Shown here piece after piece: positions 2,418 to 62,286 of a stretch of 64,000 nt of DNA. The notes under the pieces were generated by a model, which did no database searches, had not been told where the DNA came from, and saw only the letters and a program-made list of their open reading frames with translations. Each line of letters begins with the position of its first letter. Within the stretch, counting starts at the first letter, position 1. The position numbers and the translations under genes were made by a program. The DNA is from a virus (Duplodnaviria; Caudoviricetes), in the IMG/VR virus record IMGVR_UViG_3300033066_002255. One strand, given 5' to 3'.

Positions 2418-5279
2418 ATGATAAGAGAAGAAATATTATTAAAAAAATCAAGAACTGGTACAACTGCATTTTATTTTGTTCCTAATATAACATTAGAGCA
2501 AGTTCCTTTTTTGGAGGAGCCTGCTTATATAACATTTGATGTTATGAATGTTCCAAATGGATATTTTAAATATGCGAGTGGAACAACAGAACTTTGGTCT
2601 TTACAATCTTCTAATTCTTATCTTAGCAATATTATATTATCTTCAATTACAAATAATATTTTAACAGGCTTTAGTAAGACTGAAACTTTTAATAAAATTC
2701 TCTCTACAACTGAGAAACAAACTATACAATCAAGATTTAATAATAATGTAACGAGTACTATTACAGCACAAACTCAAGTTGCTGTAAATCATCCAACTTA
2801 TGTTTTTTTTAAAGAAGAAGAAGTAGATGATTTATTTGCAAACATTAAACTTACAAGAACTTTTGATACACTAAATACTCTTCAAATTTACAACAAGCCT
2901 ATAAATACTATTGCTCAACAAGAAGCAAAAACAGGTGTTTTATTTGGAAAATTACAAGCTATACAAACAATAAAAGATGAAGTCGGTAATAACATAAAAA
3001 TCCCTTTAAGAAATGTTCCTATAGGAATTTTTAATCCTACAGAAGAATTTAATGCTCCAATGTCTTTAGATGAAAACGGAGATAGATTTTTTATGAATAT
3101 AAAAGAAAATTCAGTAACAAATCAATACTTTGACAACGAAGCATATTTAGAAGATGGTAAATTTTTAAAATCTCAATCTCAATTTTTATCTTTACCAGAT
3201 AAATTTAAATATATTACAACAACAAATGAAAATGGAGAATTTGTAATATACGATGCTCCATTAGGAAGTCAAACACTTGTATTTGAAGTTGATTTATTCA
3301 AGCAGGGACTTTCAAAAGATGAAATTATTTTAAATAATTTCCCTTTTCCAACAAATGATGATTCAAACATTGGAGAGTTTCCTTGTTATGTTTACAAGCA
3401 AATACCTGTTGATGTTATTCCTGCTTGGGGAAATGGACAGAGTGGTTATACTGAAGTTAATATTAATGCAAATATTGATTTAAGGAAATGGACTACATAT
3501 ATTTTTGCGCCAGCAGCATATGCAGACGAAAAACTAGAAACCACAGTTGCAAAGAATGTTGCAAATACATTCAAAATACAAATTAGAGATATGACCAATA
3601 AAAAATTTGGCGTAAAATCTTTAGAAGTTACACAAATTCCAAATGATTTAGATAGGTCTAGTGGAGCACAGTTTTTTTGGTTTAATGAATTACTTTTACA
3701 AAGACAACAATTAGAATTTGCAAAATTTGGTTGTCATGTTTTAAAACTTCCTGCTAATTTATATGACCCAAATGGTTATAAGACAGACAGAAATGGAAGT
3801 CCAACATCAAGTAAAGGAGTTTGGTTATCTGCTTATCAATTTAGAACTTTTGTAAACATAGAAAGATGCTATAGAGATACAGGGGCTTTTTTAGATGACT
3901 CTAATAATTTCTTCAGTCATTTTGGTATTAATCATGTATCAAATGCTGGAGCATCAGATACTGCAGAACTTGTAGGCTTAGGTAGATTTCCTTATGAGAA
4001 ACCTTGGACAATAAACTATCCTGAACCTTATAAAATAACTAAAAAACCCTTACAAAAAAGGTTTGATTATGGTAATGATAGATTTTATAAAAATCCTTAT
4101 ATAGTTGAAGAGCCAGCTTATCTTGATGGAGATTTAGTAGGTAATGTAGTAGACCCAACTCCAGACGCAATAGGAAATGAGGGAGGCTTTGGAGGACAAG
4201 CTTTTGGTGGCTTCTTTCCTAATCAAATTGCATATGTTGCAACAAGAGATTATATGTATAAATATGAAAAAGGAGTTAATTATAAAGAAACATATGCAAA
4301 TGGTTATGAACCTTATTGGAGTCAAAATAATTTAGGACCATATACTTCTAAGCCAGTATTGGCAGGTTTATCTTCAGTTAACAATGGAGAAAAATACCAA
4401 AGGCTTGAATGTGGGTATGGTTATTTTATGAAATATCAAGATTGGCCAAGAGTTTTTAGAGTAGATTGGTCTGCAGATATTTATTTTTATCCAGATGCAG
4501 GAAGTGGACAGGGAGTATCTTCTCCAGGAAATTATTTTGGTAATTTTGATTCATTAAGATATTGGACACATAATACCTATAATTTAGATGACCAAAATTA
4601 TGCATTTGGTTTTAATCAATTTAAAGATAACAATACTAACAAAGGTAATATAGACATATACAGAATTGTAAATTCTGGATTAGATGGAATTAAGATACCT
4701 AAAAACTTTTTAATTCCTACTTTCATAAGAGTTAATTATGGTGGTTATGCTGATAGATTATATAGATTAGACTTATATAATAGAGGCGTAATAGATGCTA
4801 AATTAAGAAATGATTTTAATTCTGGAACAGTTGTAATGGTTACAAATCCAAGTGGAGGAACACTTTACTTTAACGTAGGACAAACTTTTACCTTGAATCC
4901 TAATGGTAGTTTTCACGTTTTAAATACAATAGGAACTGAAACAGGAACTGACCAAATTTTAGCAAGAGAAGTACAATTTACAGGAATGATTTTTCCAGGA
5001 AATGATGGTTTTAATTCTTCAACTAATAAATACGAATCAGCTGTCTATGAATTTAATGTAAATCTTGGAGGTCCTCTCTCAAGTGCTGGAGGAAATATTG
5101 ATAATGCTGGAAATTGGAATTATACTTTTTCTGTTAATGCTACAGTAGATACTCCTGAATGGTTTATAAATTCAAGTTCAGAAGGAGGAAGTAGCGGATA
5201 TGATTATCAAGGATTTAGTACATTTGGTCATTCAGATAAACCAATGTATGCTGTTTATTTCGAAGACCATGCAAGATAA
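2418..5279 (+). CDS. Large virion structural protein (tail/baseplate associated)
   Basis: 953 aa inside the baseplate operon; TTNENGEFVIYDAPLG resembles a carboxypeptidase-regulatory-like beta-sandwich. Confidence 0.6.
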   Translation: MIREEILLKKSRTGTTAFYFVPNITLEQVPFLEEPAYITFDVMNVPNGYFKYASGTTELWSLQSSNSYLSNIILSSITNNILTGFSKTETFNKILSTTEKQTIQSRFNNNVTSTITAQTQVAVNHPTYVFFKEEEVDDLFANIKLTRTFDTLNTLQIYNKPINTIAQQEAKTGVLFGKLQAIQTIKDEVGNNIKIPLRNVPIGIFNPTEEFNAPMSLDENGDRFFMNIKENSVTNQYFDNEAYLEDGKFLKSQSQFLSLPDKFKYITTTNENGEFVIYDAPLGSQTLVFEVDLFKQGLSKDEIILNNFPFPTNDDSNIGEFPCYVYKQIPVDVIPAWGNGQSGYTEVNINANIDLRKWTTYIFAPAAYADEKLETTVAKNVANTFKIQIRDMTNKKFGVKSLEVTQIPNDLDRSSGAQFFWFNELLLQRQQLEFAKFGCHVLKLPANLYDPNGYKTDRNGSPTSSKGVWLSAYQFRTFVNIERCYRDTGAFLDDSNNFFSHFGINHVSNAGASDTAELVGLGRFPYEKPWTINYPEPYKITKKPLQKRFDYGNDRFYKNPYIVEEPAYLDGDLVGNVVDPTPDAIGNEGGFGGQAFGGFFPNQIAYVATRDYMYKYEKGVNYKETYANGYEPYWSQNNLGPYTSKPVLAGLSSVNNGEKYQRLECGYGYFMKYQDWPRVFRVDWSADIYFYPDAGSGQGVSSPGNYFGNFDSLRYWTHNTYNLDDQNYAFGFNQFKDNNTNKGNIDIYRIVNSGLDGIKIPKNFLIPTFIRVNYGGYADRLYRLDLYNRGVIDAKLRNDFNSGTVVMVTNPSGGTLYFNVGQTFTLNPNGSFHVLNTIGTETGTDQILAREVQFTGMIFPGNDGFNSSTNKYESAVYEFNVNLGGPLSSAGGNIDNAGNWNYTFSVNATVDTPEWFINSSSEGGSSGYDYQGFSTFGHSDKPMYAVYFEDHAR

Positions 5280-38081: not shown

Positions 38082-38114
38082 AAAAAACCAAGAGCAATAC
38101 ACTCTTGGTTTTTT
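38082..38114 (+). terminator. Intrinsic terminator
   Basis: AAAAAACCAAGAG-loop-CTCTTGGTTTTTT. Confidence 0.8.
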
Positions 38115-38148
38115 GTTTTATTATACCTATATTTTAAAAAAAATAATT

Positions 38149-40149
38149 ATGATTTTAAATTTTGAAAAATATGCTAAATCTTTTTTGTTTGTTAATCATG
38201 ACACACCAGAAGGAGATGTTTACTACTGCGATTGCGGAGAGGTTATTACAAAAGAAAGTAATAGAAAAGAACTTCAAGAAGAATATGAAAAAGTAAATAA
38301 AGATGTAATTGTATTAGCTAACGATGAAGAAGAAGTAGCTCAAGAATTTAGAGATTTATATAAAAACGCAAAACTTGGAATAGAAGAAGAAGTTTGCTGT
38401 CCTAATTGTGGCAGAAATTTTTTAAGTTCTACAAGTATAGAACAATTAATTACAAATAATTATAATTTCATATCTGGCTATTCTTTTGAGGAAAATTCAA
38501 GTGATGTTATATTATTTTACTCAGTTATAAAGTCTGATTTATCTTCAACTGAAAAAGTTAATTTTATTGAATCTGTGAAATATATTAGATTCTCAAAAGA
38601 AGATAAAAAATTATATTACAAGAGTTTAAATGAACAAGAAAAAGAATTTGACCTAGATGAAGTATCAAATATTTGTGATGAATTTTTTGTATTTGATACT
38701 GTGAAGGTTGTTAATATCATTGATATGCATCTTTTTATTGGAAGATTAGCTAATTTTATAATTGATGCTAAAAATATAGATATTATCAATGAATTATTGG
38801 AAAATCTTAGAGGTAATGTATCAAATGCAGGACTAGATATTATAAAGAAAATCACAATAATTTTTCTAGGTATTATTAAATACTCTAATTTATCTACTAT
38901 CGCAATGACAAAAGGACCAGTTTTTTTATATGACCTTATGACAGAGTGTAGTGTGCCAAAGCCTTCAGTTTTAATAGAAAATAATGTTACTTCTCCAATT
39001 AAAATATTTAATTTTCTGATTCAAAATTATATTAAAAAATTAAATGTTGAAGTAAATGCAGATAATAAAGAAGTTCATGAATTTAAATTTAAATCAGCCA
39101 AAAGAATTGAATATGATTCTTCTGGAGAAAATGTAGTCGTGAAAGACCTTGACGGAATTGAGGAAAAGGCTATTGTAATTGCTACAAACATTGATTACAA
39201 TTCAAAAAAAGTAAAAAAAGATAAAGGACAATATCAAGTAGAAGAAGCAATAGAAGACGGGTCAGTTTCTAAGTTTATTTTTAATAAAATAAACAAATTT
39301 AGCGAATATAAAAAAATTATAAAATTCTTTAAACATGTTGACAAGCAAGAATTAATATTGCTTTTACAAAAATATGAAATAGGATTTCTCGTAGAAGTAA
39401 TTGATTTAATTTACTTTAGAAACAAAGTTTCTTTTAAAGAATTAGAAAGAATTTTAGATATAATTTTTGACTATACTTCAATAGAATCTAAAAAACACTG
39501 CAAAGTAATGGATGGTATTCTTAGAATGGATTATAGCAGAGTTAAAAGCTTTAGCTTTATTAATTATGATGATTCATTAATGATGATGGAAGTTTTAAAG
39601 TTTGACCCAAGAATTGATTTTAATAAAATAAGAACTTATAAAGAATTAAATGCGTATCATGATAATTTAATTAAATTCTTCTCTGTTTTAAAAGAAGAGG
39701 AAAAGAATGGCTCAATTATGGAATTTGTTTCTAAATTTAAATCTCTTGAAAGTAGAGAAGATTATGATGGACCTCTTGAAATTAGATTATTATCAACTCC
39801 TGGTATGATTATTAAAGAAGGTGTAGAAATGAAACACAGTGCTTCTGCTTATGCTAAAAATGTAGCACAAGGGTTTTATTTGATGGGGCAAGTCTTTGAC
39901 AAAGACCCTAATAGAACAAATTCAGAGCCTCCAAGATACACAATAGGTTTTCATTATGACAAGTTAGCTGGCTTAGAATTTGAGCAAGTGAAAGGATTCG
40001 CAAATGAGCTTGGAGAAGGTATTCCTAAAAAAACAGATAGGTTTAAAAAACTAATGATGGAATGGTTAACAGTAAAAGATATTTCCTTTAGACCTATAAA
40101 TGATTTAAAATTAAATTGGGAAAGCAGTAATATAGATGAAAAGCTATAA
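38149..40149 (+). CDS. PcfJ-like domain protein with N-terminal Cys motifs
   Basis: Start moved to ATG 38149; C-terminal IKEGVEMKHSASAY...RYTIGF...EQVKGFAN; CDCG and CPNCG. Confidence 0.65.
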   Translation: MILNFEKYAKSFLFVNHDTPEGDVYYCDCGEVITKESNRKELQEEYEKVNKDVIVLANDEEEVAQEFRDLYKNAKLGIEEEVCCPNCGRNFLSSTSIEQLITNNYNFISGYSFEENSSDVILFYSVIKSDLSSTEKVNFIESVKYIRFSKEDKKLYYKSLNEQEKEFDLDEVSNICDEFFVFDTVKVVNIIDMHLFIGRLANFIIDAKNIDIINELLENLRGNVSNAGLDIIKKITIIFLGIIKYSNLSTIAMTKGPVFLYDLMTECSVPKPSVLIENNVTSPIKIFNFLIQNYIKKLNVEVNADNKEVHEFKFKSAKRIEYDSSGENVVVKDLDGIEEKAIVIATNIDYNSKKVKKDKGQYQVEEAIEDGSVSKFIFNKINKFSEYKKIIKFFKHVDKQELILLLQKYEIGFLVEVIDLIYFRNKVSFKELERILDIIFDYTSIESKKHCKVMDGILRMDYSRVKSFSFINYDDSLMMMEVLKFDPRIDFNKIRTYKELNAYHDNLIKFFSVLKEEEKNGSIMEFVSKFKSLESREDYDGPLEIRLLSTPGMIIKEGVEMKHSASAYAKNVAQGFYLMGQVFDKDPNRTNSEPPRYTIGFHYDKLAGLEFEQVKGFANELGEGIPKKTDRFKKLMMEWLTVKDISFRPINDLKLNWESSNIDEKL

Positions 40150-40498
40150 AGATATCTTTATATATAACAATGAAGATGAGTTAATTTCTTATGTTGAATT
40201 AGACAATAATGAAATTGCTCATCAATATTTACTTAAAAATAGGGAGTTAACAAAATGCAACATCTTTCTAAATAACAAAAAGAAAGAAATAAATAAAGTT
40301 AAAATACTTTTTAACGAAGACTGTTCTTTAAGGCATTTTATTTTAGACGGAGAAGCAATCTGCAGAGTTGTTAGAAAAAATTCTCATTCTATATCTCCTC
40401 CAAATGAAGAAGCAAGAATAACATTAAAAGATAATAAAAAAATAGATTTTTTTTCTATCAAAAAAAACCTTATAGAAGATTGGCTTAAATTACTGTAA
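40136..40498 (+). CDS. Hypothetical protein
   Basis: 120-aa ORF overlapping the upstream stop. Confidence 0.6.
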   Translation: MKSYKDIFIYNNEDELISYVELDNNEIAHQYLLKNRELTKCNIFLNNKKKEINKVKILFNEDCSLRHFILDGEAICRVVRKNSHSISPPNEEARITLKDNKKIDFFSIKKNLIEDWLKLL

Positions 40499-40533
40499 AC
40501 ATTATTTTTCAGGATATTTATAAGAAAATATTA

Positions 40534-41007
40534 ATGAAATTTAAGGATTTATATTTAAGCATTTTAAGTGAAAATGAGAATTTTTTCTACGTAGATACAG
40601 ATTGCATATCTGATATCTTGGATGTAACTATTAAAAAATCAGAAGACTATGTAAAAATTGATTTCGCTACCAACTATGGTAAAAAAGGTCAATTAGTAGT
40701 AAAATATTCAAAATTTTTAAATTGGTATCTTAATCATATCAATGAATTTCCTGATGTTTTTAAATCCTTTACAAAAGAATATATTGCAAAATCTAAACAG
40801 ACTCCTGAGCTAGAAGAAGAGCCTGTTACAGAAATTGTTGATGAAGAAGGGAATTTAATTTCAAATGATGACAAGCCAAACAATTCAACAAATACAATGG
40901 TTGGCTCTAAAAATACTTGGGATTTAGAAAAAGTTTATAAATCAACTATACCAAAAAGTATTAGGTTCTACAGTGGGGACCTCGGCATCGGCATAATAAC
41001 CTGGTGA
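40534..41007 (+). CDS. Late hypothetical protein; target gene of cassette 1 (recoded 3' end)
   Basis: MKFKDLYLSILSE leader; last 14 codons strongly GC3-rich; ends in TGA. Confidence 0.75.
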   Translation: MKFKDLYLSILSENENFFYVDTDCISDILDVTIKKSEDYVKIDFATNYGKKGQLVVKYSKFLNWYLNHINEFPDVFKSFTKEYIAKSKQTPELEEEPVTEIVDEEGNLISNDDKPNNSTNTMVGSKNTWDLEKVYKSTIPKSIRFYSGDLGIGIITW

Positions 41008-41069
41008 TTGGAGTTATTATTTGGTAAATTCATTTTTATTTACTATTTATTATAAAATAGTTTTTAAAC

Positions 41070-42368
41070 ATGAGCTACAAAAGAAAAATAATTGGTACAT
41101 CCTTAGAAGAAATAAGGTTTTTTTATTTCATTAGACAAATATTTCCAGAAGCACAAAATAGATTTGTTTTTATTTATGATAAAAATAAAAGTTTTGAATT
41201 AGATATTTTTATACCACACCTAAATCTTGCAATTGAATATGATGGTGTGTATTTTCATTCTTCAAAATCAATGATAAAAAAAGATTTAAAGAAGAATGGT
41301 ATATGCAAAAAAAATGGTATAACACTAATCAGAATAAGAGAAAAGGGGTTAAGTAAAATATTTTTTCATGATATAGAATATAACTATCAATTAAAAAATA
41401 GTCACAAGGAATCTTTTAAAGGGCTTTTATGCTTTATAAAAAGTGAGTTTAATCTAAATCAATTTGAACTTAAATCAATAACAGAATTTGACTATGATAA
41501 ATTTGAAATAAGTCCTGAAGTATTGACACTTTTTAGGGAAATAGAATTTAGTAAATCACTAAAGGCTATTAATCCAAAACTATCAGAAGAATGGAATGTT
41601 GATAAAAATAATGGATTACTTCCTGATAATGTTAGCGCAAACACCGAACTTCTTGTGTGGTGGAAATGTAAAACTTGCAAAAATGAATGGCAAGCTACAG
41701 TTCATGAGAGAAACAGGGGATGGTATAATTGCATAAAATGCAGGTCTCTTGGTATTAAAAACCCAGAATTATCCAAAGAATGGCATCCAAAAAAAAATGC
41801 AGACTTAACCCCGTTTGATATTACATATGCTTCAAATAAGAAATATTGGTGGATTTGTGAAAATGGACATGAATATTTAACTTCTGTTCATACTAAAAAT
41901 AAAGGTGCTGGATGCCCATATTGTTCAGGGCATAAATTATACGAAAACAATTCTCTCGCTAAAATCAACCCAAAACTTTCAAATGAATGGCATCCAATAT
42001 TAAATGGTAATAAAACACCAGAAAATGTATTTTCAAGCTCAAGAACAGAAAAAGCTTGGTGGCAATGTTCAAATATTAAAGAGCATGCTTGGGAAGCTAA
42101 AATACATTCCAGGCACCAATTAGGCCATGGTTGTCCGTATTGTGATGGTAAAAAAGTATCAAAAGAAAATTCGTTGGCTCAAAATAGGCCAGAATTAGCA
42201 AAACAATGGCATCCAGCAAAAAACAATGAATTAACGCCTGAAAATGTAACAATTTCTTCTGGCAAAAGAGTTTGGTGGCAATGTAATTGTTGCAACCATG
42301 AGTGGCAAGCTAATATAAATAACAGAGTAAGGACTTCAGGGAAGTGTCCAAATTGTAGAAAAAAATAA
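41070..42368 (+). CDS. Putative homing endonuclease: Vsr/DUF559-like PD-(D/E)xK domain + four treble-clef zinc-ribbon (DUF4379-like) repeats
   Basis: ELDIFIPHLNLAIEYDGVYFH...LIRIRE; repeats P.L..EWH..KN..LTP..V...S....WW.C...HEW...CPYC. Confidence 0.8.
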   Translation: MSYKRKIIGTSLEEIRFFYFIRQIFPEAQNRFVFIYDKNKSFELDIFIPHLNLAIEYDGVYFHSSKSMIKKDLKKNGICKKNGITLIRIREKGLSKIFFHDIEYNYQLKNSHKESFKGLLCFIKSEFNLNQFELKSITEFDYDKFEISPEVLTLFREIEFSKSLKAINPKLSEEWNVDKNNGLLPDNVSANTELLVWWKCKTCKNEWQATVHERNRGWYNCIKCRSLGIKNPELSKEWHPKKNADLTPFDITYASNKKYWWICENGHEYLTSVHTKNKGAGCPYCSGHKLYENNSLAKINPKLSNEWHPILNGNKTPENVFSSSRTEKAWWQCSNIKEHAWEAKIHSRHQLGHGCPYCDGKKVSKENSLAQNRPELAKQWHPAKNNELTPENVTISSGKRVWWQCNCCNHEWQANINNRVRTSGKCPNCRKK

Positions 42369-42380
42369 CTATTTATTTAT

Positions 42381-42947
42381 ATGATATTAAGTGAATCATA
42401 TAAAAAGAGACTGCAAGAGCTTTCAGGTATTCAAGATGATACATATTCTTCATACAAAGGACTTGAGCCATATCAAAAAAGAAAAGAAGATTTCATAAAT
42501 TCAATAAAAAGCTTTTCAGATATTAATGATGATAAAATAAAAGAATTTATTTCTTACTTTGGGTATGAAGGATTTAATAGCGAAGAAGAAGCATATATCG
42601 ACTTGAAAGAAAAAATATCTTTTTACAAGGAAATGCCTAATCCAGTTATATTATATCGTGCAATTGGTGTAAAAAACAAAAAGATGATAAAAAATGACGA
42701 CTTAGGAGAGCATTATACACCTTATAAATGGAATATTGATACTGATATGTTAATGTCAATTGGATATGAAAATTGGGATGAAAATACGAAGCCTTATATA
42801 ATGGAGGTTTCAGTGCCGCATTCTGAAATAGATATTATTCAAACTATTATTCAAAATTTATCATTTCCAAATGAACACGAAATAAATTTAAAAAACAGCG
42901 GAAAAGGTGCTAAGTTTATAAAAGCATATAAATTAAAAGGATTTTAA
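42381..42947 (+). CDS. ADP-ribosyltransferase-like protein (R-S-E type) with leader MILSESYKKRLQELSGI
   Basis: ILYRAI...LGEHYT...YIMEVSVP...NEHEINL (R / aromatic-T / E-x-E layout). Confidence 0.5.
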   Translation: MILSESYKKRLQELSGIQDDTYSSYKGLEPYQKRKEDFINSIKSFSDINDDKIKEFISYFGYEGFNSEEEAYIDLKEKISFYKEMPNPVILYRAIGVKNKKMIKNDDLGEHYTPYKWNIDTDMLMSIGYENWDENTKPYIMEVSVPHSEIDIIQTIIQNLSFPNEHEINLKNSGKGAKFIKAYKLKGF

Positions 42948-42962
42948 ATAATAACATGGTAA
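42948..42962 (+). pseudogene. Displaced original 3' end (IITW*) of gene 40534..41007
   Basis: ATA ATA ACA TGG TAA versus ATA ATA ACC TGG TGA at 40993-41007. Confidence 0.7.
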
Positions 42963-42965
42963 AAT

Positions 42966-43427
42966 ATGAAAACAGAAAAAGATAGAATGAAAGAATTGGT
43001 TAAAATGTTCTCAAAAAAAGATGAAATATTTGCTGAGAAATCTACAAAAGATACAACCAATGAAAATCTAAAAAAAGAATATAATAGATTGCAGAATCTT
43101 GCTTCTGGTAAGGCAAATTCTACATTTAAGGAAAATTACATGAATACTGCTGATTTTGGTACTGGTGGAAATAAAGGTAAAACTGTTTCTTCTATAGCAG
43201 ATGAAATGTATAGCAATCCATCTTTATCATATCAACCTATTAGACAGCCTTTACAACCAGACGAGGGATTTGAATTAGCTATCAAAAGAGCTTTAAAATC
43301 AGGCGCTCCAGTTGATAATATGGGATTTTATGATGAAGTAAATTGGCATTTAATGAGTCTTGGTTTTCCAGCTAAAAATTCAATTGATATAAAATCAGCT
43401 ATTTTAAAACAGTTTGATAAAGACTAA
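42966..43427 (+). CDS. Hypothetical protein with leader-like helices
   Basis: EKDRMKELV and EYNRLQNLASG. Confidence 0.7.
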   Translation: MKTEKDRMKELVKMFSKKDEIFAEKSTKDTTNENLKKEYNRLQNLASGKANSTFKENYMNTADFGTGGNKGKTVSSIADEMYSNPSLSYQPIRQPLQPDEGFELAIKRALKSGAPVDNMGFYDEVNWHLMSLGFPAKNSIDIKSAILKQFDKD

Positions 43428-43951
43428 TGGAAAAAAAATTTTTGCAAGAAGTAGTTATAAAAAAACTAAATGATTTAGTTTTAGAAGTTGGTGAATTTAA
43501 TTATAATAAAAATTTCACTCCAACTGATATTGTAGCTAACAAAGCCAAACAAGCTCTATCTTCTATTGCTGGAGGGGATTCAATTGAGAAAAATACAGAA
43601 ACTGGTTCTGGTAAAGAAAAAGCAGTTGAACTTTCTCAAAAAAAGTCTCAAAATGTAGAACAAATGAAAAAAATGAAAACTTTTTTTAGTAATCACTCTG
43701 CAGATATAATAAAAATTAAACAACAGGGAGGCCCTAAGACTGAAGAAGAAAAAGGTATATATCAATCTTGGAATTTACACGGAGGAGAAGAAGGTAAAAA
43801 ATGGGTTAATGATGAATTAAAAAAATTTCATGATGAAAACCTAAGAACAAAGAAAAATCTTAGAACTGCAGGTGGAGCAGGAACAAACAAAGGTATGGGT
43901 ATATTCGATACATCTATTATGGATACCACAAAACAAAGAATTCACAGATAA
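43427..43951 (+). CDS. Conserved-looking phage hypothetical protein
   Basis: PTDIVANKAKQAL...KKMKTFFSNH...SWNLHGGEEGKKWV. Confidence 0.65.
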   Translation: MEKKFLQEVVIKKLNDLVLEVGEFNYNKNFTPTDIVANKAKQALSSIAGGDSIEKNTETGSGKEKAVELSQKKSQNVEQMKKMKTFFSNHSADIIKIKQQGGPKTEEEKGIYQSWNLHGGEEGKKWVNDELKKFHDENLRTKKNLRTAGGAGTNKGMGIFDTSIMDTTKQRIHR

Positions 43952-44002
43952 AATTTGGTTTTATTTATCTTAATTGTTATATTTTAAAAAAATAATATAA
44001 CA

Positions 44003-44596
44003 ATGAGTACAAAATTCGCAGCATCTGCATTTGCAGAATTAGAAAAATTAGAAACACCAAATTTAGATAGCCTTGAAAAAGGTTGGGAATACTTTGACGC
44101 CGATGATGAATTGGAAGAGTTTACTACTTATTTAGCTAAACACACAGGTCATCATGATGATTTAGAACCTAAAAGAATCAAGTATTTTTATACAACAAAA
44201 ATACAAAAAGATGGAGGTAGATTCGTAATTGGCTCTTTAGCAGCAAGACCAGCAGTAGAAAGAATGTTGAATGATAAGTATGATTATATGCTTTTCATTT
44301 ATTATCCTGTTTGGAAAAATTTAGACGCTAAAAATAAAGCAATTCAACTTGATAAACTTTTATGCGGTGTTGATATTCAACCAGGAAAAGATATGGCTGA
44401 AATTATTGCTAAAAAGAAGCCTACAGATTCAAGAGAATACTTAAATAACATGGCTCATTTTGGAAGTGAAGACGTTATTAAAAGCTCTGAAATTGTATCT
44501 ATGGGAGTAGAACAAATACTTAAGGATATTGCCGATAAGAAGAAGCAAGAAAAAGAGCAAAGAAAACAAAATAGTAAAAAGAATTCAGATGAATAA
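44003..44596 (+). CDS. Phage metallopeptidase-like fold, HExxH absent
   Basis: RIKYFY...YDYMLFIYYPVWKNL...QLDKLLCG where L.DHELxH is expected. Confidence 0.45.
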   Translation: MSTKFAASAFAELEKLETPNLDSLEKGWEYFDADDELEEFTTYLAKHTGHHDDLEPKRIKYFYTTKIQKDGGRFVIGSLAARPAVERMLNDKYDYMLFIYYPVWKNLDAKNKAIQLDKLLCGVDIQPGKDMAEIIAKKKPTDSREYLNNMAHFGSEDVIKSSEIVSMGVEQILKDIADKKKQEKEQRKQNSKKNSDE

Positions 44597-44888
44597 TTTT
44601 TCAAAAGAAGTTTTAAGAATAACAATAGATAAACTTAAAAATAAAGTAGAAAGTATTATGCTTAAAATTAGCATTTTACTTGATGATGAGAAAAATGTTG
44701 GTGCAGTCGATATATTAGAATCATACCTATTTGATTTAGATAAAAATAATGGAGCTTTAATTCAAGCTAAAAATTTACTATCACAATTAGAAGATGCTGA
44801 AGATATTGAGGGGCAACTTAAAAAAAAAGTAGAAATGCTTAAATCTTTATCGAGAACAAAAGATAATGATATAAAATTTACCGAATAA
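44589..44888 (+). CDS. Hypothetical protein
   Basis: ATG 44589 overlapping the upstream stop. Confidence 0.6.
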   Translation: MNNFSKEVLRITIDKLKNKVESIMLKISILLDDEKNVGAVDILESYLFDLDKNNGALIQAKNLLSQLEDAEDIEGQLKKKVEMLKSLSRTKDNDIKFTE

Positions 44889-45118
44889 TGATAATATTAC
44901 TTAAAATAATTTTGGGGCTTTTATCTGTTGCTAATATTTTAATCTTCAGATTTATTTATAAAGATTTTTATAAAATTAAAAAATCTGAAGGATATGATAG
45001 TTTATCTATTTGGGAAAAATTTAGATTTAGTTCTATTTTCTTTTTTATATTAACATCATCATTAAGCCTTCTTGTATTTTTAATTTATTTTATAGTTGTA
45101 CCTATTCAAATAATATAA
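44888..45118 (+). CDS. Small two-TM membrane protein
   Basis: Two hydrophobic runs; TAATG coupling at both ends. Confidence 0.65.
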   Translation: MIILLKIILGLLSVANILIFRFIYKDFYKIKKSEGYDSLSIWEKFRFSSIFFFILTSSLSLLVFLIYFIVVPIQII

Positions 45119-45414
45119 TGAAGAAATTTTGGAAATACTCAAAAATAAGATTCTATATTTTAAATACTATATGGAATTATAAATTTTGGCTTTTTTCTAA
45201 GAAAGTCTATAGAACGGTTACACATAATGTACCTGATATAGAAAATATACAGATGGATTATACACAAATTATGAAACCAACGATTAAAACAATAACTAGC
45301 AAAAGATTTTCTGGTTATTTTTATGAAGGTCAAATATATCATGATAATCCTGGAATACAAGGAATTGATTCGGAAACTTGGTTAGAATGGAGAAGAAAAA
45401 AACTTATTGATTAA
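45118..45414 (+). CDS. Hypothetical protein
   Basis: 98-aa ORF, coupled start. Confidence 0.6.
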   Translation: MKKFWKYSKIRFYILNTIWNYKFWLFSKKVYRTVTHNVPDIENIQMDYTQIMKPTIKTITSKRFSGYFYEGQIYHDNPGIQGIDSETWLEWRRKKLID

Positions 45415-45438
45415 AAAGCGGCATTAGCCGCTTTTTTT
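45413..45438 (+). terminator. Intrinsic terminator
   Basis: AAAAAGCGGC-ATTA-GCCGCTTTTTT. Confidence 0.85.
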
Positions 45439-45483
45439 GCTTAAATAGGTTTTTTCTGAATATTTATTAGAAAAACCTTAACT

Positions 45484-47139
45484 ATGTCCAAACAAGAAGA
45501 AATATACCCTGAAGGTTTTCCAAGACAAATGGAAAGCTTTAGTGAAGAGCAAGAGTTCAAACAGTCTACTTTGGAGATTATAAAAAATACTGCATTAGAG
45601 ACAACCGAAAAAGCGTTTGAGGAGCTTGGATATAACAAACAAGATAGTAGAGCTGGAGAGTATGGTAATGGAGAATCATATGGTGCAGGAACATCTCTTG
45701 ACCATTTTAATGTAAGAATTACATCTAATCCAAGTACAAATACTTACTTTGAAAAAATAATTTATTTTGGTGGTAAAAAAGCTATTAGCGAAGTAACCAT
45801 TGGATGGGATGCTAAAAACAAAACTATTCAAATGGCTTATAAAACTACAGAGTTTAGTGCTTTTAGAGGCTATGGTTCTGATGTAGGCCCTATGTTAATA
45901 AACAAGAGAATAAATTTTGTTATAAAAGATAAAAATAAGTTTAAAGAAAATTTAACTAAGCTTTTTAAGAATTACGCTGAAAAAGAAATTGGTTATATAA
46001 CAAGTACTAAAATTGGTATTGAAGATAAAACAGAAAAAAGTATAAACTCAATGGTAGAAACAAATATGAAAAAATTCACTTTAAAAGACCTTATGACTTC
46101 ATCAGGAGATGAATTATCAAACACTCTTGAAAATTATGTCAATGAAAACAAAGAAGGCAAAGAAAATAAGGCAAAAACTAATAACCCTGAGGTTATTGCT
46201 GCAAATTCTCCTGGTAAACTCTTATTTGATGACATTGAAGATATAAAAGATGATACAATTAAGACTGCTGCTAAAAATAAATTAAAAAAGTTTGGAGTAA
46301 TTGCATTAAATGAATTAAAACCATCTGAGAAAAAGACATTCTTTGAAGAACTTGAAAAAGAATTACAAATTGATGAAATTACTGCTTCAGGAGGAAATGC
46401 TGCTGGAGGAGCTTTTTTAACTCCTATGGCATTTAAACCAGGAGGAGATTTAAATTTAGGTCAAAGAAAATTAGAAGATACTAATTATGCCAAAGGAAAA
46501 AAAGAAAGACCATCAGTTAAAAAATCCATGGAAGAAGGAGATAGTTTCTGGAGAACTGTAGAGTTAAATCCAGGCTCTGGTTATGTCCCTAAAGGTATGG
46601 AAAAAAATTATGTTTCTGGAGAACATAATAAAAAAATAAATGAAAGCATAGAAAAGGTTAATGATAAGCTTAATAAACCAGAGCTTATAAAAGAATCATT
46701 ATTAAAAAGAAAATTCATTACAATGAACGAAAACGAAGAAAAAGGTGTAAATAAAAGATATATTGTTACTGAGCAAAGGAGTGAAGATGAACAAAATGAA
46801 AGATGGAAAAAATTAGCTATGTTCGAAACTTATACTACAATAAAAGACGCTGAAAATTTACACGAATGTGGATGCGAAGATATTGATAATTCTCATGAAG
46901 TTACAATGAATCAAGGAGAAGCTGAAAATGAAAAAGAATTTTTACAAAGAAATTCTGATGCAGAAGTTGGAGGAGAAGTTGACGGAAGAGTTGTTTTAAT
47001 GGTTCCTAAACCAAATTCTCTTTCTAATGCAATGTTTAAAGTTTTTGAAGATGACTATTTAAATGAAAATAAAACTTATATTTTAGATTTAAACTCTGGT
47101 AACTTAGTGTTAAATCCAAACTTTAAAGTAAAAAAATAA
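45484..47139 (+). CDS. Late charged protein (possible head/core protein)
   Basis: 551 aa, TATTTATT at 45461, many [ILM]xE sites (IDE, INE, IKE, LHE). Confidence 0.6.
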   Translation: MSKQEEIYPEGFPRQMESFSEEQEFKQSTLEIIKNTALETTEKAFEELGYNKQDSRAGEYGNGESYGAGTSLDHFNVRITSNPSTNTYFEKIIYFGGKKAISEVTIGWDAKNKTIQMAYKTTEFSAFRGYGSDVGPMLINKRINFVIKDKNKFKENLTKLFKNYAEKEIGYITSTKIGIEDKTEKSINSMVETNMKKFTLKDLMTSSGDELSNTLENYVNENKEGKENKAKTNNPEVIAANSPGKLLFDDIEDIKDDTIKTAAKNKLKKFGVIALNELKPSEKKTFFEELEKELQIDEITASGGNAAGGAFLTPMAFKPGGDLNLGQRKLEDTNYAKGKKERPSVKKSMEEGDSFWRTVELNPGSGYVPKGMEKNYVSGEHNKKINESIEKVNDKLNKPELIKESLLKRKFITMNENEEKGVNKRYIVTEQRSEDEQNERWKKLAMFETYTTIKDAENLHECGCEDIDNSHEVTMNQGEAENEKEFLQRNSDAEVGGEVDGRVVLMVPKPNSLSNAMFKVFEDDYLNENKTYILDLNSGNLVLNPNFKVKK

Positions 47140-47818: not shown

Positions 47819-48082
47819 ATGATTGTTAGAGAATTTAAAATAAATAAAATTAGCTTCAGAAAAAGAAAATTAACATTATTACAACATAAACTTAGAGTTG
47901 TAATGAAATGTTATACTATACATAATTTTTTAATAAATGATGAAAACAACTCCTTTAGTTTTCAAAAAACTTTTAAAAAAAGCGGAATACAAATAATTGA
48001 CTCTACTATAAATACTGGTAAGTTTAATGTAATAGATTTAGATGAATCAAATGAAATAATACTTCAAATAAATGTTGACTAA
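47819..48082 (+). CDS. Hypothetical protein
   Basis: 87-aa ORF in operon. Confidence 0.55.
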   Translation: MIVREFKINKISFRKRKLTLLQHKLRVVMKCYTIHNFLINDENNSFSFQKTFKKSGIQIIDSTINTGKFNVIDLDESNEIILQINVD

Positions 48083-48821
48083 GAGAGAAGAATATATAAA
48101 GAGTTTTTTCTTTAATGAAAAAAGTAATATTATTTCTGAAATAGAGGCTGAAAATATAGCTTTAAAAATTTCTAAAATTGGAGAAAACATTGGATTTATT
48201 GGAACAAATATAAGTTCCAACAAAGAAAAGGTCGAAAAACGCAAACATAAATATGATGTTTGGATTGCAAAAGAAACTAAGAAAGATATGTCAATACTTG
48301 AAAAAGATATTGATATAAGACTGATAATAGATTGGGCAATAAATACTAAAGCAAATCTTTTTGAATATAGTTTTTATGAAGCTATGCTAGAACAAGAAAA
48401 ATGGCATTTACAAATAATGATGTCTCATAATATAGAAAAAATAAATATACCTTCTATAGATGAAAAAAGAATTGTTTTTAGATTTAGCGATAAAAATCAT
48501 TTTTTATATTTACTCAATGAATCAGATTTAAATTACGAAGGCAATTGTATGGGCCATTGTGTATCTGGAACTAATTATAAATCAAGAGTAAAAAATAATT
48601 TATCTCTAATTTTATCTTTAAGAGATAAAAAAAACGAACCTCATTTAACTCTTGAAATAGATGTTAAAAATGCTTTTCTAATACAACAACAAGGTAAGGG
48701 AAATGCTCAAATAAAAGATAAATATTTACTACTCATGAAAGAGTTTATATTATTTGCAAGCAACTATAAACTTATTGAAAATCGTGAGACATTAAAGTTT
48801 TTAAATTTACATTTAATTTAA
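48072..48821 (+). CDS. PcfJ-like domain protein
   Basis: LNYEGNCMGHCV..Y...ILSLRDKKNEPHLTLEI...QQQGKGN. Confidence 0.75.
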   Translation: MLTKREEYIKSFFFNEKSNIISEIEAENIALKISKIGENIGFIGTNISSNKEKVEKRKHKYDVWIAKETKKDMSILEKDIDIRLIIDWAINTKANLFEYSFYEAMLEQEKWHLQIMMSHNIEKINIPSIDEKRIVFRFSDKNHFLYLLNESDLNYEGNCMGHCVSGTNYKSRVKNNLSLILSLRDKKNEPHLTLEIDVKNAFLIQQQGKGNAQIKDKYLLLMKEFILFASNYKLIENRETLKFLNLHLI

Positions 48822-59567: not shown

Positions 59568-60746
59568 TTACTCAGTTACAACTTTAATTATACAGTCACA
59601 CATCCTATTAATTTCTTCTTCTGTTAACTTAGGATGATTAGGTATATACATACCGCACTTATCGACTTTATTTACATTTTGTAATTCATTTCTACCGTAT
59701 TTTTTTATGTAAAAAGGCTGTGTACCCATAGAGCCACAAATAAGAGGTCTACATTCTACATTATTTTCGATTAAAGCTTTTGCAATTGCATTTTTTTCTT
59801 CTTCAGAGCTTGCAATTATTGGTATACAAAAACTTGCAGTAAAACTTCCTTCAACTTCTTGAGGAAACCATGTATATGGAGATAATTTTTCCTTAAAAAT
59901 TTGAAAGTTTTTATTTCTTTGAGCAATCATTTCATCAACCTTTTTTAGTTGTTCAATACCAATAACTGCTTGTAAATCTGTAGCTCTAACATTAAAGCCA
60001 GGAACATAAAAAGTATATAATGCAGAAAAATCATCTATTCCCCATTGCTCTCTTAATTCTTTTTGTCTTTCAGTATCAAGGTCTCTGTCCCAACCATGAC
60101 TTCTTAATTGCTTAAGCATATCATACACAGCTTTATCATTTGTACATATCATACCACCTTCAATGGTACTCATAGTATGTCCAAAATATGTAGAAAAAGA
60201 AGACATAAGTCCAAAATTTCCAAGTTTTATATCATTATATTTTGTACCTTGAGATTCGCAATTATCTTCTAATAATATTACACCATATTTTTTACAAAGC
60301 TCAACAATCTCATTCATTTTAGGAGAAAGTCCTAAAACTGAAACAAGAATCATTGCAGATGGCTTGTAGTTTTCAAAAATAATTTTAAGATGTTCTATGT
60401 CTACAGCTAAATTAGTAGGGTCTATATCTACAAGTATAGGGTCAAAACCTAATTGCATAACTGGAGCTAAATCTGTTGCCCAGCCAAGAGATGGTACTAC
60501 AATTCTTTTATTTCTAAGTTTATACATTTCAATTAATGCTGCAAGCATTAATAAATTTGCAGATGAACCAGAATTAACAAATACAGAATATTTACAACCA
60601 ATCCATTTAGACCACATTTCTTCAAATTCACGAACTTTATTTCCCTGAGTTAATCTTGGATATGTCTTTAACCATTCAATCAAATTGTCTATGTCGTCTT
60701 TGTCAATTGTATCTTTAACTAAAGTAATCTTTTCTGGATTTGTCAT
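59568..60746 (-). CDS. colD: DegT/DnrJ family PLP enzyme, ColD-like GDP-4-keto-6-deoxymannose 3-dehydratase
   Basis: VNSGSSANLL, EDNCES, STYFGHTMSTIEGG (His at the PLP-Lys position), RSHGWDRDL, PGFNVR. Confidence 0.75.
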   Translation of the reverse strand: MTNPEKITLVKDTIDKDDIDNLIEWLKTYPRLTQGNKVREFEEMWSKWIGCKYSVFVNSGSSANLLMLAALIEMYKLRNKRIVVPSLGWATDLAPVMQLGFDPILVDIDPTNLAVDIEHLKIIFENYKPSAMILVSVLGLSPKMNEIVELCKKYGVILLEDNCESQGTKYNDIKLGNFGLMSSFSTYFGHTMSTIEGGMICTNDKAVYDMLKQLRSHGWDRDLDTERQKELREQWGIDDFSALYTFYVPGFNVRATDLQAVIGIEQLKKVDEMIAQRNKNFQIFKEKLSPYTWFPQEVEGSFTASFCIPIIASSEEEKNAIAKALIENNVECRPLICGSMGTQPFYIKKYGRNELQNVNKVDKCGMYIPNHPKLTEEEINRMCDCIIKVVTE

Positions 60747-61741
60747 AAATCATTTATTTTTTTATTTATATTATTTTTTTCTATAAATTCGTTATAAGCC
60801 TTTGCGGCTTCTAATTCAGAATTATATGAACCAATATAATTATGTTTTCCATTAAAATAAACAGAAGATTCCCATTTTTGAGGCTTTTTTTTAAAGCTTA
60901 CTCCAAAATATTTAGAAGTTCTTTTTTTGTTAATATCTATTTTTTCCCAATTTGGGATTATGTTTAATTGAGCACTATTACCATATAATTCTAAAGCCTT
61001 TTTGTTATACGCTATCGCAGCATGAATTTCTTCTTTAAAGTGTCCTATGATAATAGATTTTCTATTAAATCTTACTGTTGCTCTCCAGAGTTTATCTTTA
61101 TTATCAATATAACTAACTCCAATATATTTTGAGCTTGTGTTTGAATTTTTAAAACCTAAAAGAGTTTTGGAAATTTTATTTTTTGTATCTTCTGAAGGCG
61201 GTAATCGTCTACTTTGAGATTCGCTCATTTTTATTTTAGATTCTGTAGAATGAGAACGACCTAAATTAGCTTTAGAAATTTTTTGACTTGTTTGCTTTTT
61301 AATGTCTTCTGGAATATTTTTATATGATATTCTTCTATTTTCTTTTTCTTGTTCAGATACTTTTCGTCCTAAGCATTTTCCCTTATTTGAATTGCCTATT
61401 TTATTTTTAGTTTCTTGAGACAATATCCTACCAGAAACGCCCTCTCCTCCATCTGTTGAATTAACTAAAATTCCCATGTTTTTATCTGCTCTACCAAAAA
61501 GTTTAATATAGAATTTTTCAGAAAAGTTACATAACTCTTCATTTTTACAAATCTTAATTAATTTAATTTCTGGGATTAAACTTTGTTTTTTAAGAGAATT
61601 AAGCCAATTGGTTTTATGAGTTTTTGTTTTATCTTTGAGATGACCATTAAACAAACGTCTATTTAAATTTTTAGTTGTTTTACCTACATATCTAACCTCA
61701 TTTGTTCTTGGGTCTATTAAAAAATATATTTTATATTCCAT
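60743..61741 (-). CDS. GIY-YIG homing endonuclease with NUMOD3-like repeats and two AP2 domains
   Basis: ATG 61741; KIYFL..YVGKT..RR..H..E..N; SQETKNKI/STESKIKMS; SKYIGVS...EIHAAIAYN and SKYFGVS...ELEAAKAYN. Confidence 0.88.
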   Translation of the reverse strand: MEYKIYFLIDPRTNEVRYVGKTTKNLNRRLFNGHLKDKTKTHKTNWLNSLKKQSLIPEIKLIKICKNEELCNFSEKFYIKLFGRADKNMGILVNSTDGGEGVSGRILSQETKNKIGNSNKGKCLGRKVSEQEKENRRISYKNIPEDIKKQTSQKISKANLGRSHSTESKIKMSESQSRRLPPSEDTKNKISKTLLGFKNSNTSSKYIGVSYIDNKDKLWRATVRFNRKSIIIGHFKEEIHAAIAYNKKALELYGNSAQLNIIPNWEKIDINKKRTSKYFGVSFKKKPQKWESSVYFNGKHNYIGSYNSELEAAKAYNEFIEKNNINKKINDL

Positions 61742-61827
61742 GTTGCATTTTATTATAAATAGAATAAAAATTCCCAAACTGACAAAAGGCTTAAAATTTA
61801 AAACATTTTTTTGAAATATTTATTTAA

Positions 61828-62286
61828 ATGAATATAAGGAAAATTATTAGAGAAGTTTTGACTAATCATATAAAGAATTTAAATAAACCATATATAGTTA
61901 ATATTAATGGTGAAATGTTTTATCACCAAACCAATTGTAATAATATAAAATCCATAAAAGATAATGGCTTTAAAAGTGATTTACATAATGGTCAAGCAAG
62001 ATTTACTCATGGAGTATATTTTTTAAATCATCCAGAAGGAAGATATGGAGATTGTACGTTACAAGCTAATATTTATGGAAATTTTTTAGATTTCAGAGAT
62101 GAAAATGATATTTTGGGAGATAAATGGATTAATTTTAGAGACTCTTATGAATGGGATAATTATATAGATTTAACAATTAAAATGAGACAAGACAATAAAG
62201 ATATAGATGGTCTTATTTTTGATAATCTATTAGTTGTTTGGTATCCAGAAAAATGTATTAAAAATATTTCTGAATATAATTTGTAA
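61828..62286 (+). CDS. ADP-ribosyltransferase-fold protein (H-Y type) with leader MNIRKIIREVL
   Basis: FYHQT...SIKDNGF...GVYFL...YG...DGLIF..LVVWYP. Confidence 0.55.
   Translation: MNIRKIIREVLTNHIKNLNKPYIVNINGEMFYHQTNCNNIKSIKDNGFKSDLHNGQARFTHGVYFLNHPEGRYGDCTLQANIYGNFLDFRDENDILGDKWINFRDSYEWDNYIDLTIKMRQDNKDIDGLIFDNLLVVWYPEKCIKNISEYNL

Follow-up and report, generated by a model that had tools for sequence, protein, structure and literature searches.

Endonuclease mORF gene hybrids have been described from fungal mitochondria, in atp6 of Allomyces macrogynus and in atp6, atp9, cox2 and nad3 of Glomus sp. (PMC3630166, where Paquin et al. 1994 are cited for such hybrids), and in them the native C-terminal piece is nearer to that of a close relative than the substitute is (PMC3630166). 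By analogy, these hybrids are the closest precedent for a locus in the viral record IMGVR_UViG_3300033066_002255 (a stretch of 64,000 nt analysed whole, referred to as the window, with its locus labelled WIN in comparisons), in which a conserved phage gene, here called X, ends in a substitute tail and is followed by an endonuclease gene and a cargo gene. In both systems a conserved gene is joined at its 3' end by a mobile endonuclease open reading frame (ORF), that gene has an in-frame substitute C-terminus, and the native C-terminus is stranded downstream; in the window 15 nt of the displaced native end survive (remnant 2), and these too are closest to an insert-free relative. The host here, however, is a phage and not an organelle, the nuclease is, judged by its predicted fold, of the Vsr/EDxHD type with DUF4379 fingers and not LAGLIDADG or GIY-YIG, the substitute comprises only 14 codons and has a composition opposite to that of the rest of its cassette, every cassette of this type carries an extra remnant between the substitute tail and the endonuclease gene, and a cargo gene is present.

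The locus also resembles those of SegF, SegG, SegE and MobE in T-even phages, as described in PMC2988022 and PMC2790892, in that conserved genes flank a free-standing nuclease gene whose presence among relatives is patchy. As in intronless homing, the cut would fall in the neighbouring gene and not at the insertion point, and the flanks would be co-converted. In the T4 cases, according to those sources, the markers of the cut allele are excluded and replaced by co-conversion; the window element, unlike these, includes a duplicated, synonymously respelled gene end and stranded remnants. The catalytic domain invites comparison with I-Bth0305I, the prototype EDxHD homing endonuclease, whose gene lies within a group I intron and whose nuclease domain is C-terminal, behind a DNA-binding region at the N-terminus (PMC3239194; PDB 3r3p), and whose cleavage is barely affected by single substitutions but is affected by three consecutive ones (PMC3239194). 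The window enzyme appears to have the same nuclease fold and the conserved Vsr-type catalytic Asp/His/Asp; it differs in being encoded by a free-standing gene and in having its nuclease domain at the N-terminus, followed by four DUF4379 zinc fingers, and is thus a relative of I-Bth0305I by catalytic domain and not a member by architecture. Among the titles and abstracts returned by a literature search on DUF4379, none concerned such an enzyme. Finally, home-and-rescue and cleave-and-rescue drives (PMC7968924, PMC6442612) link a nuclease directed at a conserved gene to a recoded, uncuttable copy of the targeted part, by which the gene stays functional, as is proposed for the window cassette; those drives, unlike the window cassette, are engineered Cas9 systems in diploid animals, and the analogy is one of design only. 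To what is known of these systems the locus adds a tail opposite in composition to the cassette it belongs to, a remnant moving together with the element, a further copy of the gene end (the third) derived from the recipient, and a population-level view of all stages.

The tract is probably a homing endonuclease cassette of the free-standing kind, situated where a conserved phage gene ends. Gene X (40534..41007, plus strand, 157 aa) has 98 homologues of 150-174 aa, which are best conserved at the C-terminus (RFYSGDLGIGIITW) in the alignment. Neither X nor its homologues could be assigned to a family in Pfam or PHROG, and in the protein atlas X matched unnamed clusters only (scores of at most 0.81). 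A single-protein scan of viral contigs gave no matches, and it took an alignment-based scan to bring up relatives there. In all, 64 related loci were gathered (labelled with L numbers), many of them on short contigs. BLASTN of window positions 38500-46000 against 50,697 deposited phage genomes found no match, an exact search of the viral contigs for the respelled-tail motif gave 0 matches, and a scan of genome contigs gave one small contig, probably mis-binned, with an empty site and an AT-rich X tail. The locus belongs to uncultured AT-rich phages, and X is conserved across a large family of them.

In the related loci the gene order is conserved, running from an upstream gene through X and a next gene of 153 aa to a gene of 174 aa. 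In phages without the endonuclease, the next gene (42966..43427 in the window, plus strand) is conserved immediately to the right of X. The natural X tail of these phages is AT-rich and its stop is TAA, and in most of about 50 loci the X stop lies 4-30 nt ahead of the ATG of the next gene. The closest endonuclease-free relative of the window, L002, with 83% identity in X and 84% in the next gene, has such an empty junction: its X ends ...ATA ACA TGG TAA, and after 3 nt of spacer the next gene begins as it does in the window.

The window X ends instead with AGG TTC TAC AGT GGG GAC CTC GGC ATC GGC ATA ATA ACC TGG TGA (40963..41007, plus strand; 14 codons and the stop), which forms the left end of the mobile tract. 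The G+C content of the window is 28.1%, and the mean proportion of G or C at third codon positions (GC3) is 0.144 over its 58 ORFs (19,770 codons). Against this background the 11/14 GC3 of the X tail (binomial P = 1.3e-7) is the highest value of all 14-codon stretches in the window, and every such stretch with GC3 of at least 9 falls inside the X tail. The initial annotation had drawn attention to three versions of the same gene end, of which this is one, and to the GC3 of the first and the rarity of its TGA stop; the three sequences, their positions and the count of 11/14 were accurate, the tail also came out highest in sliding windows, and TGA terminates 2 of the 58 ORFs. GC3 is 0.79 in the tail, 0.18 in the X body and 0.197 in both the endonuclease and the cargo gene, so the odd composition is that of the tail alone and not of the cassette, which argues against a plain foreign origin. 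Compared with the natural tail of L020, 16 of 45 bases differ with no amino-acid change, and the serine codon family has been switched.

The tail is built from codons that are rare in this phage (CTC, 1% of Leu; ACC, 4% of Thr; ATC, 5% of Ile; AGG and GGG, 6% each), which would suit codons native to X that serve translation, for example through slow C-terminal decoding, independently of any insert. This explanation is barely credible, given that homologues lacking the endonuclease encode the same peptide with AT-rich codons and stop at TAA and that sister pairs of occupied and empty loci differ exactly in the tail. After removal of duplicates, 10 occupied and 35 unoccupied tails could be compared: median GC3 was 8/13 (range 3-10) in the former and 4/13 in the latter (Mann-Whitney p 9e-5, a value that ignores shared ancestry), or 0.53 against 0.23 when Trp is left out, and the contrast was at its greatest over the final six codons (0.60 against 0.19). 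The final Trp is followed by TAA in 33 of the 35 unoccupied loci and in none of the 10 occupied ones, where it is followed by TGA in four, TAG in one and a read-on in five. The initial annotation had pointed to cassette-free homologues as the comparison that mattered, and these are not equally GC-rich. In the stop-less alleles P0023, P0027, P0033, P0046 and L047, X is extended by 9-14 residues past the new tail, and in P0033 it ends ...IGVIIW, which is remnant 1 (described below) translated. The distance of a tail to the endonuclease-free consensus did not separate the two groups (p 0.099), because distant lineages differ in amino acids too, whereas GC3 and the codon after Trp did.

A passive origin of the tail would also place a G/C-rich piece here: a fragment of a GC-richer donor could have been co-converted with the cassette, never selected for immunity and not yet drifted to the host composition. 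GC-richer relatives do exist (L047 with 38% GC and body GC3 of 0.5; L015 with 53% GC), AGT GGG GAC CTT is present in the endonuclease-free L037 as well, and TAC AGT GGG GAC CTY GG is common to the tails of WIN, L001 and L003, so the tail has been inherited along with the cassette. However, the endonuclease and cargo genes of the same cassette have a host-like GC3, the diverged cassettes of L010, L062, L056 and L060 have tails that are spelled differently yet also G/C-enriched, none of the 10 occupied tails keeps the natural TAA ending, and the enrichment peaks in the six codons matching the remnant. Passive carry-over may describe where the sequence came from, and leaves its persistence beside an AT-adapted endonuclease unexplained; as a full account of the tail it is unlikely.

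Two pieces of natural tail accompany the substitute. Directly behind the new end of X, positions 41007..41027 (plus strand) read ATT GGA GTT ATT ATT TGG TAA (IGVIIW*) in another frame than X and match positions 22-42 of the consensus tail, TAA included (remnant 1). Directly behind the cargo gene, positions 42948..42962 (plus strand) read ATA ATA ACA TGG TAA (remnant 2), a displaced natural tail end that stands, with a 3-nt spacer, ahead of the ATG of the next gene and is collinear with the empty sites of L002 and L020. The 15-mer at 40993 in the X tail has its sole match with at most two mismatches, on both strands of the window, at 42948. The initial annotation had left room for short matches at chance level, and any such 15-mer match has P = 0.006 in dinucleotide-shuffled sequence of 2 kb. 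Across the six frames of the window, just three peptides match [IV][IV][TSVI]W-stop, those of the tail, remnant 1 and remnant 2.

Remnant 2 is identical to the natural tail end of L020, and window positions 42951-43000 are collinear with L002. L061, whose cargo is 94% identical to that of the window, L062 and L052 have no such piece behind the cargo, and divergence there starts right after the cargo stop. From this collinearity, and from its absence behind the cargo elsewhere, remnant 2 is, on sequence comparison, this phage lineage's own displaced end, with the right-hand join directly behind the cargo; the proposal that the distal copy is the displaced original end thus stands. A transposon carrying endonuclease and cargo could leave a direct repeat as a target-site duplication, and a 13/15 direct repeat does flank 41008-42947. 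Such an origin is highly improbable, as the cassette has no transposase and no terminal inverted repeats, the right repeat copy is absent from all other occupied loci, including L061 with its closely similar cargo, and the left copy lies inside the 45-nt respelled tract common to other cassettes.

The same 17-20 nt of remnant 1 precede the endonuclease gene in L003 (X body 65% identical to that of the window) and in L062 (43%), and all other occupied loci have their own version, which ends in TGG and a stop and is followed by the conserved leader with CTATTTAT. Remnant 1 is therefore best described, from its distribution among loci, as a natural-tail relic that belongs to the cassette and travels with it. 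The suggestion in the initial annotation that IGVIIW* records an earlier round of invasion holds insofar as this is a remnant of a natural tail, but not insofar as it implied a scar formed in this genome, the relic being cassette-borne. In local alignments to the 42-position consensus tail, the remnant covers positions 22-42 in the window, L003, L010, L060 and L033, 20-42 in L027 and 23-42 in L052, so that its start lies at positions 20-23 in seven of the remnant-carrying loci; L057, L059 and L063 have longer, decayed stretches. As these alignments run to the tail end and include the stop, they suggest that the endonuclease gene was first placed directly behind a natural stop and that a complete new tail was later set ahead of the last seven codons.

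The cassette is patchily distributed. The junction of X with the next gene holds an endonuclease gene in the window, L001, L003-L006, L010, L047, L056/57, L058/59, L060 and L062/63, and by gene calls also in the P0033 contigs. Every occupied locus has a substitute X tail, no TAA right after the final Trp and a natural-tail remnant behind the new end. Occupied L003 and empty L021 have X genes 93.6% identical in DNA, occupied L010 and empty L011 have X genes 92.6% identical, and the window and the empty L002, its closest full-length relative, make a third such pair. L062 and L064 were considered as another sister pair and dropped, being only 69% identical. Between WIN and L003, DNA identity is about 67% in the X body, climbs from about position 40938, reaches 90-95% over 40938-41057 (tail, remnant and leader), and is about 85% in the endonuclease gene and about 73% in the two downstream genes, and the sister loci L003 and L021 part precisely at codon Y146. 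A cassette identity above that of the flanks, together with this break, indicates that tail, remnant and endonuclease gene form a unit younger than its surroundings.

Several states can be recognised at the junction: empty AT-rich sites in most loci, occupied sites, a decaying endonuclease in L058, a loss scar in L033 and an empty, partly respelled site in L009. The endonuclease of L058/59 is frameshifted near residue 245. L033 has no endonuclease gene and retains a G/C-rich tail, a partial remnant and the motif that follows the endonuclease gene, within a spacer of 65 nt. Empty L009 and occupied L010 have GGG ATT GGG AT in common, and L009 may, from its spelling, be a resistant allele. One site in wild phages thus presents empty susceptible, occupied, frameshifted, loss-scar and possibly resistant empty alleles. 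The description of the junction as a repeatedly invaded hotspot is borne out by its contents: besides several diverged endonuclease lineages, it holds the frameshifted gene of L058/59, the loss scar of L033, the cargo gene by itself and an unrelated short ORF. The unrelated ORF, of about 80 aa and starting MFGREFENIE or MIDFENIE, is found at L042:618-899, L049:4450-4719, L027:4500-4739 and in L043; in L027 it stands behind a respelled tail ending ...SVMWE and a natural-tail remnant, with no endonuclease gene between.

The endonuclease gene (41070..42368, plus strand) encodes 432 aa, with a Vsr/EDxHD-like nuclease domain at about residues 1-130 followed by four DUF4379 treble-clef zinc fingers (PF14311, 5.8e-68, four stretches). 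The N-terminal domain matched phrog_3339, annotated as 'homing endonuclease' (3.7e-15). In a model of residues 1-170 (pLDDT 85.5), the best structural match was the catalytic domain of I-Bth0305I (3r3p; Z 10.3, rmsd 2.9, 96 of 97 residues), and Vsr was matched as well (1cw0; Z 9.1). Residues D45, E56, D58, H63 and D72 are invariant in seven endonuclease homologues and fall on EDxHD/Vsr catalytic positions, in a sequence alignment that is itself weak (E 0.65), so that the Vsr/EDxHD assignment is carried by the match of the predicted fold. X ends with a stop and the endonuclease is a separate ORF with its own leader and ATG, which is the layout of neither an intron nor an intein. The leader (41028..41069, plus strand) contains the promoter-like motif CTATTTAT at 41043-41050 and is conserved across cassettes, and a second CTATTTAT motif (42369..42380, plus strand) lies directly behind the endonuclease stop, 12 nt ahead of the cargo start. 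In all, CTATTTAT occurs 12-27 nt upstream of four plus-strand gene starts (window positions 109, 31505, 41043 and 42369), including those of the endonuclease and cargo genes, and this count does not exceed expectation (4 against 5.8).

Across all cassettes, the right half of remnant 1 is conserved together with the next 40 nt, and this well-kept half may, from its position, now serve the promoter region of the endonuclease gene. The same conservation, with the five occupied loci in which X lacks a stop and reads on, could also point to tail and remnant being a functional nucleic-acid element, for instance an RNA that forms a hairpin or acts as a terminator, a site of frameshifting or read-through that yields alternative C-termini, or the edge of an intron or intein. 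This is very unlikely in view of folding z-scores of -0.74, +0.79 and +0.66 in three cassettes, a remnant frame relative to X that is +1 or +2 by locus and hence allows no common frameshift, and the start and leader that the endonuclease gene has of its own. An Rfam search of 40400-43100, introns included, returned no family reaching E 0.1, nor any match below E 0.4.

A mechanism can be proposed that would connect these features. The substitute is a copy of the last 12-14 codons of X in which the protein is kept and the DNA changed, with G/C third bases and TGA in place of TAA. The enzyme would cut the AT-rich natural tail of phages that lack the cassette, probably around codons 152-154, a position suggested by the two remnants, which start no more than six bases apart in tail coordinates (22 and 28). 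The cut genome would then be repaired from a carrier infecting the same cell and so receive the substitute tail, the endonuclease gene and the cargo gene, and the respelled tail would keep X functional and the carrier uncut. In the window phage, the right-hand join would have been made just behind the cargo stop onto the broken tail of the recipient, which would account for the 15 nt of the old gene end still present at 42948-42962. The new tail could have come to lie ahead of remnant 1 either through end joining after a divergent tail had served to repair a cut carrier, or through tandem duplication and later divergence. The predicted target is accordingly the AT-rich last seven codons with TAA and the predicted source of immunity the respelled copy, for an enzyme whose architecture is uncharacterised.

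It is plausible, and put forward tentatively, that the G/C respelling is an evolved immunity device shaped by the tolerance of the enzyme, that the cassette is a natural home-and-rescue counterpart that spreads through uncultured AT-rich phages and ferries an ADP-ribosyltransferase (ART)-like gene, and that the remnant starts mark a cut near codons 152-154. The enzyme would in that case have to accept the natural A/T wobble variation of its target, so that only G/C spellings, TGA or TAG stops, or read-through would escape it. That I-Bth0305I is hindered by three consecutive substitutions and hardly by single ones would explain the need for dense respelling. Several observations weigh against the proposed mechanism. 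L058/59 is occupied and has near-natural spelling (GC3 3/13), its endonuclease being the frameshifted one; the L001 tail is respelled in its left half only; the endonuclease-free L009, L032 and L048 have GC3 of 6-8/13; and the comparison of occupied with unoccupied tails disregards shared ancestry. If respelling does protect, the locus would be a natural example of the 'recoded rescue' principle of synthetic gene drives and would explain how such elements can occupy the best-conserved codons of a gene and yet leave it unharmed. For annotation and phylogeny, the locus is a warning that gene ends adjoining nuclease genes may be foreign.

The cargo gene (42381..42947, plus strand, 188 aa) has no match in Pfam, and its 100 homologues are likewise without a family. 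It lies behind the endonuclease gene in the window, L061 and L062/63. In its predicted structure (pLDDT 89.2), nearly all of the top 50 structural matches to residues 86-188 are ARTs, at weak scores (Z at most 5.7; Foldseek E at least 0.18), and the alignment shows R93, H111 and E165-x-E167 in every sequence and T113 in at least 90% of them. These matches weakly suggest an ART-like protein, an assignment that is unproven. In L052 (1560-1700), a cargo homologue (61% identical) stands directly behind X with no endonuclease gene between; the X tail there is respelled (GC3 9/14), ends ...GSVVWE and has a GC-rich 14-mer in common with the window tail.

The window encodes a second free-standing endonuclease at 60743-62286 (minus strand, 344 aa; GIY-YIG, NUMOD3 and AP2), which adjoins a 152-aa gene without a family within a sugar-modification cluster (DegT aminotransferase and NAD-dependent epimerase). 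Comparison of the cargo protein with the product of this 152-aa partner gene gave no detectable similarity (E 0.52).

Further variation surrounds gene X. The GC-rich relative L015 (locus 53% G+C, X body GC3 0.71) has an AT-rich X tail end (4390-4440), with 0/6 G/C third bases in the last six codons before Trp and then TAA, the reverse of the contrast in the window, which suggests that the tail end in its natural form has been kept at the level of DNA, or else has been imported recently. The lineage of L003-L006, and this lineage only, has a TnpB-like gene (OrfB_IS605, Cas12f1-like_TNB; 374 aa, minus strand, L003:4778-5902) just upstream of X. An IF3 homologue (IF3_N and IF3_C) lies a few kb upstream of X in three loci (L003:648-1214, L056:180-692 and L058:170-673). 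In two occupied lineages, the N-terminus of the next gene has an extra 86-aa module (MEDLKQRYNYEIKRY...) fused in frame (L003:7857-8114 and L056:5931-6200), and L012 and L025 have instead an internal insertion of about 120 aa in that gene. In the window, the X module is flanked by two proteins with PcfJ-like domains, at 38113-40149 (2.6e-05) and 48072-48821 (4.3e-09).

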